Assembly (NCBI GenBank): GCA_965262725.1
Contig: OZ253555.1
Coordinates: 1,152,001-1,216,000, forward strand
Direction of reading: 5' to 3'
Source of the DNA: Dehalococcoidia bacterium
GTDB taxonomy: Bacteria > Chloroflexota > Dehalococcoidia > UBA2979
Length of the DNA stretch: 64,000 nt
The position numbers were made by a program, and so were the translations under genes. Position 1 is the stretch's first letter. Each line of letters begins with the position of its first letter. Positions 31,265 through 36,430 of the stretch are shown piece by piece. The notes under the pieces were generated by a model. The model had not been told where the DNA came from. It saw only the letters and a list, made by a program, of their open reading frames with translations, and did not search any database.

Positions 31265-32006
31265 CAGGCGAGTCTATCCGCCGGGCGCGCTACGGACCGC
31301 GGCGTCGCGCGCGCGGGGCCGACGGAGTCCGCGCTCCGAGCGCTGCCGCCGCCCACGCGCGCGGGTGATGCCGCGGCGCACATGGCCCCTAGTGTCCTGA
31401 ATTGGAAATGCGATTGAGATATCCGGTGAGGTTGGTGTGTCCCGAAGTCGAAGGGCGGGTGACGTGATGACGTAACCGGTCTGGAGACATGCTCGTCGTT
31501 GCCAGCCGGTGCGAGTCCGGCACGGGTAACTGTCAGGAGGCCCGTTAGCAGGTCGGCGGCGCGGACGGGAAACGGTCCACGTCGAAGCCCGACGTCAAGA
31601 GCCCTATCAGGGGGAGCAACCAAGCGGTCCGCAGCATCAAGCGAAGCCTGCCGCGTCGTTAACGGATAGTGGAGGAGCCGAGCCCGGCAATTCAGGGCGA
31701 AGGCCATGGACGAGGTGAAGATCCTGAATGCGCGTTGCGCTGCAGCCTCAAGGAACCTCCCGGCGTAAGGGGCGTGGAACGTTTGGAAGGTAGCGACGGG
31801 AACGGGAGAAGCCCTCCCCGGCCCGGCACCCTGCGAGATGGTGTCGGAGCGAGGTGCCCTATAACCGGTCAAAGCCGGGAAGTGGGCAGCTAGCCGGAAG
31901 GGTGACGGAGGGGGTCGTAGTACCGCTTGAGCCGGACGGACAACACAACCGCCGGTGATGGGAAGGACCCCTGCTTTGCTCACGCGTGGGGAGTAGGGAT
32001 GAATCG

Positions 32007-34206
32007 GTGAGTGCCCAAGCGGCTAACTCCATCCAAGACAAGGTCCGAACACTACAACGCACGCTTTACCGGGCGGCCAAGGCCGACCCCAATAGACGCT
32101 TTCATGCGCTCTACGACAAGGTTTATCGCAGAGACATTCTGGAGCGCGCGTGGGAGCAGGTGCGTCGCAATCGCGGCGCAGCCGGTATCGACGGCGTCAC
32201 GCTCGCCGAGGTCGAGCGCTACGGCGTGGAGCGCCTGCTGGATGAACTGGCCACGGAACTGAAGGAGGGAAGATACCGGGTGCAGCCGAGCCGCCGGGTC
32301 TGGATACCCAAGCCCGGTCGGTCGGAAGAGCGCCCGCTCTCGATTCCTTCGGTCCGCGACCGCATCGTGCAGGCGTCGCTGAAGCTCGTGACGGAGCCGG
32401 TCTTCGAGGCCGACTTCCTGCCATGCAGCTTCGGCTTCCGCCCGAAGCGTTCGGCCCATGACGCCCTGCAGGTCCTCATTGACGAGGCGTGGCGGGGCAG
32501 GCGGTGGGTAGTGGAGACGGACATCGCCTCGTGTTTCGAGTCGATACCGCGTGCGTCCGGAAGTCGAAGGGGTGGTGACGTGATGACGTGACCGGTCCGG
32601 AGACATGCTCGTTGCTGCCAGCCGGTGAGAGTCCGGCACGGGTAACTGTCAGGAGGCCCGTTAGCAGGTCGGCGGCGTGGACGGGAAACGGTCTGCGTCG
32701 AAGCCCGACGTCAAGAGCCCTATGAGGGGGAGCAAACGTGCGGTCCGCAGCATGACGCGAAGTCTGCCGCGCCGTGAGACTCGCCTGTCTATTGACAGGA
32801 CCAAGGAGGAGCCGAGCCCGGGTGGTCAGGGCGAAGGCCATGGACGAGGTGAAGATCCTGGAATGCAGCCTCAAGAAACCTCCCGGCGTATGGGACGTGG
32901 AACGTACGGAAGGTAGCGACGGGAACCGGAGAAGCCCTCCCCGGCCCGGCACCCTGTGAGAGGGCGTCGGAGCGAGGCGTCCTATAACCGGTCAGAGCCG
33001 GGAAGTGGACAGCCAGCCGGAAGGGTGGCGGAGGGGGTCGTAGTACCGCTGGAGCCGGACGGACAACATAACCGCCGGTGATGGGAAGGACCCCTACTTT
33101 GTCCGTGCATGTTGCTGGGGGTGTGGACTGGTGAGTGCCCCTCGGGGCTAGCAACCACTTGGTAGGGTTCGAGGCTCTCCGCACATGCTGTACCGGCTGG
33201 CCAAGGCACGACCCACGTTGTGGGGAGCGCTGCATGCCATCTGGTGAAGGGCATCGGTGAGCCGGATGAGGGAGAACCTCACGTCCGGTTCGATGTGGCA
33301 GGGGCTGGAGACGGACGCTGCTATGGCCGTGGAGTTGGGCACCACCGGGAAACCGGCTTGGAACTGATGCGCCACCGCCTACGGCTCGCACCGCGCCAGC
33401 CCCTGACCCTACACGACCGTCTGATGACGGCCGTCGAGGAACGGATATGCGACCGCAATCTCCTGAAGCTGGTACGGGCGATGCTGCGTGCCGGTGTGAT
33501 GGAGTCGGGGGTCGTGCAGCACAGCGCGACGGGTACGCCGCAGGGCGGGGTGATGTCCCCGCTGCTGGCCAATGTCTACCTGCACCGGTTGGACCGGGAC
33601 TGGGAGGCGAAGGGTGATGGCGTGCTGGTGCGCTATGCGGATGACCTCGTGGTGCTCTGCCGGAGCCGGGAGGAAGCGGAGCGGGCGTTGGCCCTGCTGC
33701 GTGACCTGCTGGGTGAGCTCGGACTGGAGCTCAAGGCGGAGAAGACGCGCATCGTGCACCTGCGGGAGGGAGGCGAGGGGCTGGAGTTCCTCGGCTTCGA
33801 GCATCGCTGGGTACGTGCGAAGCGCAACAAGAATATCCAGTTCCTCGCACGCTGGCCCTCACGGCGAGCGATGCAGCGGGCGCGGGACCGCATCCGTGAA
33901 ATCACGGCGCGGTTGCGTCTGCTGCTGAGTCCCCGGCAGGTCGTGGAGGAAGTCAATCGCTACCTCCGCGGCTGGATGAGCTACTTCCGCTACGGCAACT
34001 CGGCGAGGGCGTTCGACGTCCTGCACTGGTTTGCCATGTGGAGACTCAAACTCTGGCTGGGGAAGCGGTTGCGTTGGCGGCGACGCCATCGCGGGCACCC
34101 GTTTCCCGTCGCCGACCGTCTGGGGCTCATCTCGCTAGCTGGACAGCGCGTCGTGGCACCACGGCCATATCGACCGTGGCGGGGCACCCCGCATGCCGCC
34201 CGGTGA
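32007..34206 (+). CDS. ltrA: group II intron reverse transcriptase/maturase, split: join(32007..32550,33413..34206), 445 aa, no obvious endonuclease domain
   Basis: RPLSIPSVRDRIVQ and SFGFRP in exon 1; DIASCFESIP/HDRL across the junction; GTPQGGVMSPLLANVYL, RYADD, FLGF and GWMSYF in exon 2. Confidence 0.92.
32551..33412 (+). mobile_element. inner ORF-less group II intron inserted in the RT gene
   Basis: 5' end GTGCG. Domains I-III are near-copies of the outer intron. Domain V is at about 33259-33291 and the 3' end is CCCTAC. Removing it restores the RT frame exactly. Confidence 0.93.
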
Positions 34207-34511
34207 AGGGCATCGGTGAGCCGGATGAGGGAAAACCTCACGTCCGGTTCGAGGCGGCAGGGGCTGGAGACGGACGATGCTACGGCTGTGGAGATGGGCG
34301 CCACCGGGAAACCGGCCTGGCAATATGCGCCACCGCCTACGGCTCGCACCGCGCCAGCCCCTGACCCTACTCAAAGATCTGGTCCGCGGACTTGTGCCAG
34401 ATGAAGCGCCTCCGGTGCTCGTTTCCAGTTGCGACCCAAGCCTCCACTGAGCGGACCAGGCCTGCGAGGCTCGGTGCGATTGTTTTCAGCATTTGCAACT
34501 CGGGACACTAG

Positions 34512-36430
34512 GACGCTGGTGCCAAACTCGAGTCACGGCGGCCGCGGTCCGTGTGAGAGGGAGGTGTAGCGTCGGGTGGGCGCGGGCCGGGAGTTGCGCC
34601 GCCAGGGGGTGAGCGGGGCCGGCATCGACCCGGGATCGGGACCCCCGGACGCAGGCTCTCCCGCAGTGGCCCCCGCCTCCGTCTCCCCTACGAGGGCGCC
34701 GCGACCGCCCACCGGGTTGGTGTGTAGTGCAGCCCCAGCGTCGCCAGCCGCGCCAGGTTGACTGAGGCGGCGAGCAGGTTGTGGTCGGCATCGACCTTGA
34801 GACGGCCCCGGACACGGGCGACGCGGCCCCCGTGTCTGCGACGGGTCGTATGCGCCACCTTGCGTTCGACTATCGAGCGGACCGTGCGGTAGCCGGAGAG
34901 CCACCCGGGAGTCTGCTGGCGTGCCCGGGCGGCCGCGAGACTGGCCTCGTGGATCCCGACCTCGACGGTGCGGCCCGCAGGCGATGTGGTGCACTGGGCG
35001 CGAAGCGGACAGGGGCTGCAGGCGCCCCGGAAGTGGGCGGTCCCCGGGCCGTCGGAGGCGCGGCGAATCGGCACGGTCACCTCCGCGGGACAGGTGACGG
35101 TCCCCCTCTCCAGGTCGACGGTGAATCGCTCCTTGCTGAAACGGTGATGCGGTGCGGTCGCTCTCTGAGTGCGGCAGCGGGACTCGACCCCGTGCTCCTC
35201 CAGCAGCGACTGGAACGCGCCCGAGCCGTAGGCCGAATCGCCGTAGACGGTCGCCGTCCCGGTGCTCGCCTCCGCAGCCGGGTCGTCGGCATCGTCGTGT
35301 TCGCCTGCGTCCTCCAGCAGGTCCGTGATCAACTCCTCCGCGATATCCCCGTCCGCCACGTTGCCTGCGGTCACCGTGGTGTGGGTGATGAGCTCCGACT
35401 CCGGGTCGATCGCCAGGTGCCCCTTGTAGCCATCGAAGCCGTGCGCAGAGCTCTTGCGCCCGTGGCGGGCGTCGGGGTCCACGGTCGAGATGATGCGGTC
35501 CCTCGCCACCCGCCGCGCAATCACGAAGCGGCCGCCTTCGTCCTGCTCGAGGTCCTGCCCCACCACGGCCGCACACAGCTCGCCTGCCCGCGCAACGCGC
35601 TCGTCGAGCTCCCGTCCCTCCAGCACCCGGAGGCAGCTGGAGACATCGGTCGCCAGTTCGTCGATGAGCGCCCGCGCAGCCTCGCGGTCCTCCCAGTCAC
35701 ACGGAGGCTTGCCGGGAGCTCGATAGTCGTCATCGCGCCTCAGCACCGCCCGCAGCTCGGCCTCGAGCCCGGACTCACCGAGGCGCTCCGCCTCCCGCAG
35801 CAGCCCGCGGAGCGACGACCGGAGCAATGTCACCGTGTCCTGCGTCGCGACCGCGTCGTAGAGCGGCGTCGAGTCCAGCACTCGCTGCGCAGAGAGCAGC
35901 TTCGCCTCGCGCGCCACCACAAGCGTGGCCTCGAAGATGCGCCGGGGGCGCTCGGAGCGGGCGAGGCGCGCCCGCATCGAGACCAGGACCGTGTGCACGA
36001 AGCCCGGCGCGTCGTAGTCGAGTCCGCCGCAGGCGAACTTCCAGCGGGCGTCCCACTCGAAGGCCGCCACCGCCTCACGGTCGGACAGGCCGTGGAGACG
36101 CTGCAGCACCATGACCGTGGCGACCACCCGCGGGGGAACGCTCCGGCGGCCGCGAGCGGAGAAGAGGTCGGCGAACATCTCGTCGGGGAAGAGGCGTTCG
36201 CCGTGGCGGGCAAGGAGGGTCCAGATGGAGTTCCCGGGGAGCCTCTCAGCGACGTAGGCGGTGCTCTTGAAGAAGGTAAGGGGCTGCCTGGAGGTCTCTC
36301 CCTGTGTCATGAGCGAGACTTTCACTGCGAACAGAACTGATCACCAACATGATCGCATTCCGTGACTCAGTTCGCAACGATGCCCCGCCTCCAGAAGGCA
36401 CCCACCGCCCTACAAAAAAACACCAGGCTC
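34512..36430 (-). mobile_element. IS1182-like insertion sequence flanked by CTAG
   Basis: Ends GACGCTGGTG and rc GAGCCTGGTG match 8/10. CTAG at 34508-34511 and 36431-36434. Confidence 0.75.
34688..36310 (-). CDS. IS1182-family (IS5-related) DDE transposase
   Basis: GRRSVPP, LSDREA, VLDST, DPDARHG.K, GYKGH, YGDSAYG, CxxCPLRxxC and RSIVERK. Confidence 0.9.
   Translation of the reverse strand: MTQGETSRQPLTFFKSTAYVAERLPGNSIWTLLARHGERLFPDEMFADLFSARGRRSVPPRVVATVMVLQRLHGLSDREAVAAFEWDARWKFACGGLDYDAPGFVHTVLVSMRARLARSERPRRIFEATLVVAREAKLLSAQRVLDSTPLYDAVATQDTVTLLRSSLRGLLREAERLGESGLEAELRAVLRRDDDYRAPGKPPCDWEDREAARALIDELATDVSSCLRVLEGRELDERVARAGELCAAVVGQDLEQDEGGRFVIARRVARDRIISTVDPDARHGRKSSAHGFDGYKGHLAIDPESELITHTTVTAGNVADGDIAEELITDLLEDAGEHDDADDPAAEASTGTATVYGDSAYGSGAFQSLLEEHGVESRCRTQRATAPHHRFSKERFTVDLERGTVTCPAEVTVPIRRASDGPGTAHFRGACSPCPLRAQCTTSPAGRTVEVGIHEASLAAARARQQTPGWLSGYRTVRSIVERKVAHTTRRRHGGRVARVRGRLKVDADHNLLAASVNLARLATLGLHYTPTRWAVAAPS

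Follow-up and report, generated by a model that had tools for sequence, protein, structure and literature searches.

Two closely similar group II ribozymes follow one another in the window, by which we mean the whole 64,000-nt stretch of DNA that was analysed and to whose positions all coordinates below refer, and the second of them lies inside the RT/maturase gene of the first. How did an intron with no ORF of its own come to sit within the RT gene of a close relative, and what does this mean for the gene that it splits? An earlier note on this DNA had proposed that the inner element was retargeted into the RT gene of its own sibling. We consider it highly probable that the locus at 31435-34370 is a genuine group II twintron that arose by retrohoming, which as a full explanation accounts best for the evidence. 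The features to which the text refers are as follows.

31388-31434, minus strand: outer 5' exon, the left end of an IS630-family remnant of ~190 nt
31435-34370, plus strand: outer group II intron A, with a GUGUG start and a CUAC end
31663-31668, plus strand: outer EBS2 CGGATA, in an internal loop, on its unpaired 5' strand (columns 225-254 of alignment A5)
31688-31692, plus strand: outer EBS1 CAATT, in the terminal loop of a hairpin (A5 columns 266-269/279-282)
31768, plus strand: outer EBS3 A, in an internal loop of 3 nt (columns 351-353 of A5)
31986-32550, plus strand: first part of the RT/maturase ORF, 188 codons plus 1 base
32537-32550, plus strand: site within the RT gene targeted by the inner intron, with IBS2 CGAGTC at 32537-42 and IBS1 ACCGC at 32546-50
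32551-33412, plus strand: inner ORF-less group II intron, 862 nt, with a GTGCG start and a CTAC end
32778-32783, plus strand: inner EBS2 GACTCG, pairing with CGAGTC at 32537-42
32822-32826, plus strand: inner EBS1 GTGGT, in a terminal loop, pairing with ACCGC at 32546-50
32891, plus strand: inner EBS3 T, in the alignment column of the outer A, matching the 3' exon A at 33413
33095-33232, plus strand: inner domain IV, a degenerate remnant of the 5' end of an RT ORF
33259-33291, plus strand: inner domain V, placed by covariance model alignment and fold
33297-33408, plus strand: inner domain VI, unusually long at ~112 nt
33413-34206, plus strand: second part of the RT/maturase ORF, completing a His codon and continuing D-R-L-M..., with a YADD motif and the maturase domain
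34218-34366, plus strand: outer domain V (34218-34250), followed by the long domain VI, whose branch A is at 34364
34371-34512, minus strand: outer 3' exon, the right part of the IS630-family remnant

Outer intron A measures 2936 nt with the inner intron and 2074 nt without it, and is IIB-like, RT-encoding and endonuclease-less. The Rfam model group-II-D1D4-4 matched it at 31503-31639 with 95.3 bits (gathering score 49), and Intron_gpII (RF00029) at 34216-34283 with 41.5 bits. Its 3' end, for which the earlier note named no position, falls at 34370. A short domain VI ending at 34283, as given by the Rfam model and once taken for a 3' extension, was rejected on account of compensatory changes in the long domain VI helix, the supporting fold and the agreeing copy ends. 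The genome contains 12 copies of intron A, which are 99.9-100% identical. Both exons of the copy in the window belong to an IS630-family element, in whose antisense strand the intron resides; an inverted repeat, CCTAGTGTCC, lies at 31388-97 within the 5' exon, and an inverted repeat, GGACACTAGG, closes the 3' exon at 34503-12. A full-length copy of the IS elsewhere in the genome encodes a DDE_3/HTH transposase, and the intron site maps near its 3' end, on the opposite strand. The target flanks are identical at the 12 occupied and 14 empty IS sites, and the twintron is present in two sequence variants of the IS.

The inner intron was likewise matched by D1D4-4 (32619-32755, 102.8 bits, gathering score 49). 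Intron_gpII aligned with it at 33257-33412 with 37.5 bits, under the gathering score of 40, and domains V and VI were accordingly missed at the gathering threshold and recovered only at an E-value threshold. Its boundaries are exact, as similarity between copies stops at 32551 and 33412, removal of the sequence between them restores the RT frame, and the Rfam model of domains V and VI ends at 33412. In domain VI the branch A at 33406 is bulged and lies seven bases from the 3' end, and the MFE fold of the domain has a z score of -4.9; the basal helix carries two compensatory changes in a second family of RT-encoding introns in this genome, family B. Both introns of the locus possess the hallmarks of group II, namely 5' GUGYG, 3' AY, domains V and VI, and the domain I architecture.

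Identity between the two ribozymes is 87% across the 5' 550 nt and 92% across the 3' 180 nt, and the differences cluster in the EBS segments, in agreement with the earlier description of near-copies whose differing targeting sequences each match their own flanks. The compensatory change described for the basal stem of domain I was also found as reported, with TCCCG (31440-44) and CGGGA (31803-07) in the outer intron versus TCCGG (32556-60) and CCGGA (32926-30) in the inner one. Directly after its EBS2, the inner intron bears an 18-nt hairpin insertion that is absent from the outer intron. Aligned with the ORF starts in outer A and B and in the homologous intron of a same-genus genome (G003), the inner domain IV conserves the start-codon region, GGTGAGTGCC, followed by an in-frame stop; an RT ORF is absent from this domain. 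Degenerate remnants are kept of the first ~30 RT codons and, judged by eye, of the last few. Since remnants of both the 5' and the 3' codons persist without an ORF, the inner intron is a deletion derivative. In common with the TeI3-type ORF-less introns, it has no IEP ORF, has an ORF-containing ancestry and shares its genome with related IEP-encoding introns.

The RT/maturase gene that it splits likely starts at GTG 32007, a codon chosen by eye. The first part of the gene covers RVT_1 positions 1-83 and TIGR04416 positions 2-137 (172 bits), and the second part covers RVT_1 positions 90-204, GIIM, and TIGR04416 positions 140-352 (214.5 bits); the best solved-structure relatives of the second part are group II RTs. 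Only RVT_1 and GIIM were detected with Pfam, the endonuclease domain being absent, and 38 residues follow GIIM. Excision of the inner intron restores a complete RT/maturase through a phase 1 junction in which C|AC encodes His, and the inner intron thus lies wholly within the outer one, its exact removal restoring an outer intron with the full TIGR04416 profile. The insertion site lies within the codons F-E-S-I-P|H, at about position 84-89 of the 205 positions of Pfam RVT_1. As this is the core of the RT, a full RT cannot be obtained from an alternative start. In G003, the site of the homologous RT-encoding intron is uninterrupted (...TTCGAGTCGATTCCGC|ACGACCG...); the RT reads ...SCFESIPHDRLM..., in a continuous 472-aa frame that runs through ...FESIPHDRLM.... 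In contrast, all 15 RT genes of the two families in the assembly (12 of family A and 3 of family B) are occupied by the inner intron and none is empty, and a search of the genome with the 40-nt empty-site junction gave no match, even when up to 6 mismatches were allowed. The ribozyme of family B is about 80% identical to that of outer intron A, and the same RT codon is occupied in it, which fits the targeting of conserved codons.

We found 28 inner-intron copies in the genome, 26 of them exact and 2 with one difference. The earlier note had suggested looking for such copies and asking which sites they occupy: 15 sit at the RT codon (12 in family-A genes, 3 in family-B genes), 1 is in tandem, and 12 are ectopic, with matches to the IBS sequences and the same intron ends. 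Together with the discrete 862-nt unit and the empty site in G003, the number of copies upholds its contention that the layout is not a tandem duplication. Ectopic host genes were called by codon-position G+C and Pfam; choosing the longest open frame was dropped as uninformative in a genome of 70% G+C, and an insertion supposed to lie in an NAD kinase gene was rejected because the site precedes the gene's probable start by about 20 nt. The ectopic copies occur in both sense and antisense orientation relative to genes. At one locus the nesting is three deep, with a family-C group II intron inside an inner intron inside outer B.

The 12 ectopic sites provide an independent test of the pairing between the inner intron and its targets. 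EBS1 GTGG paired with positions -4..-1 at 4/4 positions in 12/12 ectopic sites (0.066 at random genome positions; p = 6e-15), and EBS2 paired at 5 or more of 6 positions in 10/12 (random 0.14; p = 1e-7). The +1 base was A at 7/12 ectopic sites (background 0.147, p = 6e-4) and at 15/15 RT sites. Between sites of the inner intron, the spacing of EBS2 varied by 1-2 bases. From these sites we infer that the intron selects its targets at -14..-9, -4..-1 and +1, and it may indeed be programmed to home into its helper, as the earlier note worded it.

Since all sites of the outer intron copy one IS sequence, support for its EBS/IBS pairing comes only from covariation across lineages. The outer EBS1 (31688-92) pairs with GGTTG at 31430-34, EBS2 (31663-68) is complementary to TATCCG at 31420-25 (IBS2), and the EBS3 A at 31768 matches the 3' exon T at 34371, a T in 12/12 copies. 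Across 7 intron lineages the EBS1 columns vary, and in 7/7 they form pairs with 4 or more of the last 5 exon bases; the fifth EBS1 position is an invariant U, which pairs in some lineages only. The EBS2 columns pair clearly in 5/7 lineages, the two G008 copies giving no support to the EBS2 register as they form only 4/6 pairs with their exons. EBS2 columns 228-233 carry other letters in families B, G003 and G018: those of B and G003 form pairs at positions -14/-13..-9 of their respective 5' exons, while that of G018, two bases further out, pairs with -15..-11. Outer A, B and G003 all have A as EBS3, and T as the first base of the 3' exon. Taken together, EBS1 pairs with IBS1 and EBS2 with IBS2 in the 5' exon, and EBS3 with the first base of the 3' exon. 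All EBS coordinates given earlier for the two introns agree with the sequence. The two registers, which had been called equivalent, are so for EBS3, which occupies one shared column; IBS2 is off by one base, at -15..-10 for the outer and -14..-9 for the inner intron.

The location of EBS1 rests on the fold, since GTGG occurs 8 times in the inner intron and complementarity to the flanks is therefore insufficient; a scan of the whole intron for complementarity to the ectopic flanks was rejected as a means of locating it. In an RNAalifold consensus of the 7 lineages, to which the EBS positions were not supplied, EBS1, EBS2 and EBS3 all fell in loops, where the earlier note had expected them. Double changes were seen at 18 of the 117 pairs in the consensus fold of domain I, a number reached by 0/500 shuffles, and 97.7% of the cells were paired versus 33-48% when the partners were slid.

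The insertions are also biased with respect to the replication fork. The sense strand runs along the fork in 11/12 ectopic copies (p = 0.006), and co-directionality with the fork is commoner at occupied than at empty IS sites (10/12 vs 5/14, Fisher p = 0.02). Origin and terminus, located by means of GC skew and dnaA, are approximate, the skew being flat over 0-0.45 Mb and 1.8-2.55 Mb. Because ectopic copies are found in either orientation relative to their host genes, gene orientation alone fails to explain the bias, which is as expected for endonuclease-less retrotransposition that uses the lagging-strand template. An IEP without an endonuclease domain and an insertion bias towards that template are both features of RmInt1/IIC-style mobility.

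Contigs from other public runs bear on the same layout. Short-read contigs bridge both junctions with 0 differences, that of run X7 covering 32523-32658 and that of run X1 covering 33390-33700. X7 is a metagenome, probably of DNA, and 2 of its contigs pass from 32549 to 33412 without the 862 nt (matched at 90% likeness, the shorter side counting 39 letters). These two contigs indicate that uninterrupted RT genes exist in the X7 community, in relatives or subpopulations, so that the statement that no intact helper RT is present holds for this assembly only. Two runs carry an RNA label, transcription not being established for either: X19 yielded a single 263-nt contig that matches 32702-32964 without a difference, along with small domain V pieces, and X20 one 179-nt contig (33014-33192). 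The exon-exon joint was not seen in these contigs, which are small and intron-internal, from runs that are RNA by label only.

We propose the following cycle. The inner intron originated from a related intron by a deletion that removed the RT and kept a complete ribozyme together with the start-codon (DIVa-like) region, and its EBS2, EBS1 and EBS3 diverged to pair with the RT codons F-E-S-I-P|H. Following transcription of the twintron, splicing of the inner intron is predicted to re-create the RT reading frame, and the RT/maturase translated from it would bind both ribozymes. Lariat RNPs of the inner intron would then reverse-splice into DNA that pairs at -14..-9, -4..-1 and +1 with EBS2, EBS1 and EBS3, preferentially on the lagging-strand template at forks, where the nascent strand presumably primes cDNA synthesis. 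Such a cycle would end in what is seen in the genome, with 15/15 RT genes of two helper families filled, 12 ectopic insertions and one tandem copy.

Which protein acts on the inner intron bears on the most serious alternative, in our view an unlikely one, in which another RT, either from family C or from intact helpers in co-resident relatives, serves the inner intron independently of its own host gene. The genome does contain about a dozen RT genes of family C, an unrelated group II family (about 40% identical), the assembly lacks an uninterrupted A or B RT, and uninterrupted forms were found in a metagenome. Against a family-C supplier, the ribozyme of that family is of a different type (Rfam D1D4-6), whereas the inner ribozyme is 87% identical to that of family A and keeps the start-codon region of domain IV, which is the usual RT-binding site. 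Maturases are, moreover, usually specific for their own intron. In the account of PMC2882425, maturase cross-activity is graded and found only among close relatives.

It is less probable still that the nested unit is an inert passenger, multiplied at the DNA level by IS630-family transposition or by recombination, in which the inner intron has lost the ability to move on its own. The 12 family-A twintrons do lie in one repeated IS context, sharing at least 40 nt of 5' flank and at least 25 nt of 3' flank, and their outer and inner parts are equally near-identical. Because they are nearly identical inside and out, a separate invasion by the inner intron cannot be distinguished from travel with the composite; SNP counts (3 variable sites in the 2074 nt of the outer part vs 0 in the 862 nt of the inner) gave no discrimination between composite mobility and separate invasion, and some twintron copies could have spread along with the IS element. 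An inert passenger is nevertheless at odds with the 12 standalone inner copies, located at unrelated sites that match EBS1, EBS2 and EBS3 in their flanks, with the presence of the inner intron in 3 diverged family-B RT genes that have other flanks, and with the tandem copy. In addition, two IS variants are occupied, and occupancy follows replication orientation, a pattern that would not result from DNA transposition. Two similar ribozymes in succession in a repeat-rich genome might suggest that the layout is an artefact of assembly or that the ribozyme was simply duplicated in tandem, but both can be set aside with near certainty in view of ribozymes that differ at 13% of positions in a structured pattern, exact boundaries with a restored reading frame, the empty site in G003, the contigs of other runs across both junctions, and ectopic copies with identical ends.

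We raise as a tentative idea, with perhaps a modest chance of being right, that every helper gene in this genome is held hostage by its parasite, such that families A and B would obtain full RT only from RNA from which the inner intron has been spliced. The supply of RT would then act as an autocatalytic on/off switch, splicing of the inner intron itself probably needing the maturase, and the composite might retrohome as one unit with its passenger unspliced. Were this so, the switch would lead to mobility in bursts, with which the 28 near-identical copies agree, and the helper would be throttled: just 12 of the 26 identical IS targets are filled, and 5 of the empty ones are in the favoured orientation.

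The homing of ORF-less introns into the ORFs of related introns is already published, for Thermosynechococcus and Methanosarcina (PMC2882425, PMC4424553). In Thermosynechococcus elongatus, the ORF-less introns TeI3a-e (F3) lie inside the RT ORF of TeI4a-e (F1) (Mohr, Ghanem and Lambowitz 2010, PMC2882425). As described there, and as in our genome, ORF-less introns derived by deletion from RT-encoding ones multiplied within one genome, their EBS diverged, and they home to a conserved site in a sibling RT ORF; the inner copies are identical, EBS/IBS pairing at insertions is mostly good, and an insertion sequence is the home of other members of the family. The same account also brings out differences. 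The T. elongatus site lies between two close start codons, the second ATG giving an RT without splicing, whereas the site here is in the RT core; two T. elongatus introns have continuous ORFs, whereas 15/15 helper RT genes are occupied here; and the outer introns, diverged in T. elongatus, are nearly identical here. The T. elongatus RT is of an endonuclease-type lineage (CL/IIB1) and the RT here is without an endonuclease domain, and mobility was demonstrated by experiment in T. elongatus but is predicted here.

Nested group II introns of Methanosarcina acetivorans (Dai and Zimmerly 2003, as related in PMC4424553 and PMC2882425), to which the three-deep locus here is comparable, are archaeal, reach up to five levels and have no coding exons. 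Sequential splicing, as ours would need, is required by the Trichodesmium erythraeum twintron T.e.I7/T.e.I8, a group II twintron of a bacterium (Pfreundt and Hess 2015, PMC4649490). Its two introns each have their own IEP ORF and are distantly related, in contrast to the ORF-less inner intron here and its close relative; it interrupts a host protein gene and its splicing was shown in vivo, whereas the gene interrupted here is the outer RT and its splicing is predicted. RmInt1 of Sinorhizobium meliloti has an IEP that, according to PMC4615759 and PMC4075523, lacks an endonuclease domain. Our outer intron resembles RmInt1 in being endonuclease-less and IIB-like, with a high copy number, IS homing and a replication-linked strand bias. 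The home of RmInt1 is an IS630-family element, and its insertions show a lagging-strand-template bias; we know of no twintron or RT-gene targeting described for it.

The locus leaves the known working of group II introns unchanged. Its 12 independent ectopic insertions reveal the targeting code of an uncharacterised intron with no experiment needed, and the target rules deduced from them, together with an endonuclease-less RT, could serve retargeting work. Insertion in the RT core together with complete occupancy of the helper genes in the assembly is, within the available text of PMC2882425 and PMC4424553, not reported for the classic examples. Set beside them, the locus represents a clean natural case of intron-on-intron parasitism, one in which, given insertion in the RT core, expression of the helper must pass through splicing of its parasite.

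Positions 31388-34512 of the window, as read from the sequence, constitute a three-layer nest:

31388-34512: IS630-family remnant (~190 nt), the outermost layer, bounded by inverted repeats CCTAGTGTCC (31388-97) and GGACACTAGG (34503-12)
31435-34370, + strand: outer A, an RT-encoding group II intron within the IS remnant, starting GUGUG and ending CUAC
32551-33412: inner intron, ORF-less, 862 nt, nested within outer A (Rfam D1D4-4, 102.8 bits)

A full-length relative at another place in the genome codes for an HTH and DDE_3 transposase, and in this relative the outer A target lies ~14 codons from the transposase stop, on the opposite strand. Outer A matches the Rfam models D1D4-4 (domain I-IV, 95.3 bits) and DV/DVI (41.5 bits), and its domain IV comprises an RT/maturase ORF that the inner intron interrupts after 32550. 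The two RT pieces cover TIGR04416 positions 2-137 and 140-352 and RVT_1 positions 1-83 and 90-204, followed by GIIM. The YADD motif is present and there is no endonuclease domain, RVT_1 and GIIM being the only Pfam matches. The cut is in phase 1, following ...F-E-S-I-P and splitting the His codon (C/AC) ahead of D-R-L-M... Just 3' of the IS remnant, positions 34688-36325 (- strand) contain a 545-aa ORF that appears transposase-like.

The inner and outer A ribozymes are 87% identical over their first 550 nt and 92% over their last 180 nt, and their 3'-end similarity halts exactly at ...CCCTAC (33412 and 34370, respectively). Differences cluster in the intron targeting segments, namely the EBS1 loop (4/5 bases), the EBS2 segment, where the inner intron also bears an 18-nt hairpin insertion, and the single EBS3 base, together with a compensatory pair in the basal stem. 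The earlier note had described near-copy ribozymes with differing targeting sequences and a compensatory change in the domain I basal stem, and both descriptions, as well as every coordinate it assigned to an EBS or its exon partner (IBS), proved correct. Its view that the registers are equivalent did not strictly hold, since IBS2 spans -15 to -10 of the 5' exon for outer A and -14 to -9 for the inner intron, one base off.

Domain I was aligned across seven lineages: outer A, the inner intron, outer B (a second RT-encoding family of the same genome, whose ribozyme is ~80% identical to outer A), and introns from the same-genus genome G003 and the further relatives G008 (two copies) and G018. 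RNAalifold, run blind to the EBS proposal, returned a standard-looking domain I in which all three segments fall in loops, as the earlier note had supposed:

columns 225-254: EBS2, unpaired 5' strand of the internal loop preceding the EBS1 hairpin
columns 270-278: EBS1, terminal hairpin loop
columns 351-353: EBS3, 3-nt internal loop

Both-side changes were present in 18/117 pairs, a value reached by 0/500 shuffles, which ignore relatedness. Because of this, and because the structure derives from the same sequences, slid controls and pair-type counts are the fairer measures: 97.7% of cells pair, compared to 33-48% with partners slid 1-3 columns, and one basal stem position displays four pair types. 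The EBS1 columns read CAAU, GUGG, ACCC, GGAA, GGGA (twice) and UCCC, and in 7/7 lineages these columns, taken with the invariant fifth U, pair with four or more of the last 5 exon bases. The fifth base itself pairs in some lineages only. EBS2 pairs clearly with the -15 to -9 zone of its own exon in five of the seven (outer A, inner, B, G003 and G018, the last in a register shifted by two bases), and that of the two G008 copies pairs at only 4/6 positions. EBS3 is A where the 3' exon begins with T (A, B and G003) and U where it begins with A (inner).

In the genome (G000), a single contig (C1) of 3.67 Mb, the inner intron occurs 28 times; 26 of these copies are exact and the other 2 each carry a single difference, and later IS insertions have split some of them:

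12 copies: at the FESIP/H codon of outer A, in 12 outer A copies
3 copies: at the same codon of outer B, in 3 outer B copies, with differing flanks
1 copy: the second of a head-to-tail pair within one twintron (549500-550361 and 550362-551223)
12 copies: stand-alone

The search for further copies proposed in the earlier note thus recovered 15 at the same RT codon in families A and B. In this assembly the RT genes of both families are occupied (15/15), and the 40-nt empty-site junction had no match in G000 with up to 6 mismatches allowed. By contrast, of the outer A target sites 12 are filled, while 14 with identical or near-identical sequence are empty. Homologous RT genes in G003, G008 and G018 are uninterrupted at the site, that of G003 (...TTCGAGTCGATTCCGC/ACGACCG...) forming a 472-aa open frame, and the inner intron was found only in G000 among 41 genomes searched. 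In a public sequencing run, X7, probably a DNA metagenome, two contigs omit exactly the 862 nt, joining 32549 to 33412 (summed depth 254), and another crosses the filled 5' junction (depth 136). That community must therefore include helper RTs without the insert, which limits full occupancy to this assembly; filled and empty forms coexist there, in one organism or in different ones.

The 12 twintrons are near-identical, with three variable sites in the outer part and none in the inner part, and could have arisen by composite retrohoming, by separate inner-intron invasions, or partly by IS transposition. All four combinations of two variable sites of outer A (31623 and 32273 in the window) are represented in the 12 copies, which suggests recombination or gene conversion between them. 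In the tandem (L032 1301-3024; G000:C1:549500-551223), the RT 5' exon precedes the first copy and the RT 3' exon trails the second. Reverse splicing into the 5' exon-intron junction of a site that already held an inner intron would account most simply for the tandem copy, as IBS2 and IBS1 are still present there and the +1 base is a G, able to wobble-pair with the EBS3 U. A further locus is a three-deep nest (L031 2023-3947; G000:C1:734422-736346), in which a 1.9-kb group II intron (Rfam D1D4-6, 152.6 bits; RT ~40% identical) lies at position 722/723 of an inner copy that itself sits in an outer B RT gene. Several twintron or inner copies are interrupted by a ~2.6-kb element with an IstB-like ATPase (weak DnaA-family matches), probably of the IS21 family (e.g., G000:C1 1591544-1594170, 2558516-2561136, 291405-294032 and 3121222-3123847), and others by 1.2- and 1.4-kb elements.

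Each of the 12 stand-alone copies marks a separate insertion event, and the sequences they entered are unrelated. Only positions -15 to -11 (TCGAG), -4 to -1 (C-Y-R-C) and +1 of the flanks carry information (n=12). EBS1 GUGG pairs with -4 to -1 at 12/12 of these ectopic sites (0.066 at random genome positions), while EBS2 GACUCG, with offsets of up to two bases from the RT-site register allowed, pairs at 5/6 or more positions at 10/12 (random 0.14). Position +1 is A at 7/12 sites (background 0.147, p = 6e-4) and G at 2/12; pairing does not explain the conserved T at -15. The earlier note would have counted copies at unrelated sites with no IBS match against its reading; copies do occupy unrelated sites, but the sites carry IBS matches. 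Taken together, these findings confirm the observation that each ribozyme carries targeting segments matched to its own flanks, and support its interpretation as a satellite intron homing into the RT gene of its putative helper. One 'ectopic' copy (G000:C1:1524130-1524991) is located within an RT gene that belongs to a different group II intron, at ...N-P-I-Y-E-S-G-Y/Y-G-F-S-H-G-F-R-P-G-R-S..., which is ~45 residues N-terminal to the FESIPH position and where the local Y-E-S codons resemble F-E-S.

As established for RmInt1, IIC introns and Ll.LtrB retrotransposition, introns whose RT lacks an endonuclease domain reverse-splice into transiently single-stranded DNA at replication forks, where a nascent strand serves as primer; an intron inserted in this way ends up in the lagging-strand template, oriented so that its sense strand follows the direction of the fork. 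We scored co-directionality on a map from cumulative GC skew (minimum ~0.4 Mb, maximum ~2.5 Mb) and dnaA (0.478 Mb), on which origin and terminus are approximate. Eleven of the 12 ectopic copies were co-directional with the fork (p = 0.006), the sole exception lying 20 kb beyond the flat skew maximum. The 26 outer A sites, which are antisense near the 3' end of IS630-family transposase genes or in short remnants, were co-directional in 10/12 filled compared to 5/14 empty cases (Fisher p = 0.02); five are favourably oriented yet empty. Ectopic copies are sense to a 1550-aa LRR/cadherin-repeat ORF, an RNase_T exonuclease and the RT of a different group II intron (at a non-homologous position), and antisense to a HisKA kinase, a phosphotriesterase and an IS630-family transposase, so gene orientation does not explain the bias. 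Host genes are affected by four of the copies (G000:C1:1302815-1303676, 1822597-1823458, 1018206-1019067 and 537614-538475): one precedes the sole NAD kinase gene by ~20 nt, in sense, one is the sense copy within the LRR/cadherin-repeat ORF, and two are those antisense within the histidine kinase and phosphotriesterase genes, from which splicing cannot remove them.

In the inner intron, domain IV (33095-33232) can be aligned to the beginning of the RT ORF in A, B and G003; it retains the GGTGAGTGCC start region and recognisable codons of ...L-Y-R-A-A-K-A-D-P..., with an in-frame stop; the last RT codons, read by eye, also persist immediately 5' of domain V. These remnants identify the inner intron as an internal-deletion derivative of an RT-encoding intron. 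Its 3' domains are as follows:

33259-33291: domain V
33297-33408: domain VI, ~112 nt, far beyond the Rfam consensus length

The basal helix of domain VI (CAGGGGCUGG/CCAGCCCCUG) shows two compensatory changes in family B, and A33406 is bulged, seven bases from the 3' end. Domain VI is likewise ~112 nt in outer A (34256-34366) and outer B. The Rfam DV/DVI model either aligned the long domain with a large insertion or chose a false short one ending at 34283.

Anatomy and family relationships point to a cycle in which the twintron would be transcribed, the inner intron spliced and the restored RT translated; the RT would then form RNPs with both ribozymes via the retained start-codon region, and these would reverse-splice into the target. 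Contigs of two runs that carry an RNA label, and may or may not derive from transcripts, contained no spliced RNA. Family C, unrelated group II introns present in about a dozen copies in the genome (Rfam D1D4-6, RT ~40% identical), could conceivably act as helper instead. An open frame (33220-34206, + strand, 328 aa) begins at a GTG in inner domain IV, continues through domains V and VI and, past the 3' splice site, shares its frame with the C-terminal half of the RT. Translated from unspliced RNA, it could give a protein that lacks the RT N terminus but includes RT motifs 4-7 and the maturase domain; the frame has no evident ribosome-binding site and may reflect chance in DNA of 70% G+C.

A literature search, conducted other than by organism name, returned no paper on the introns of this organism. 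PMC2882425 describes twintrons of T. elongatus that form when ORF-less introns home into the RT ORF of their siblings, and a review (PMC4424553) describes ORF-less introns as rare in bacteria and nearly always found alongside related IEP-encoding introns. An ORF-less intron in a sibling RT ORF is therefore an already known arrangement, of which the present case is another instance, and its main value is in the saturation of the helper genes and a ready-made natural read-out of targeting rules. In contrast to the ORF-less and nested cases described there, the target here lies in the RT core, every helper gene in the assembly is occupied, the RT is endonuclease-less with a clear replication-strand signature, and domain VI is very long.
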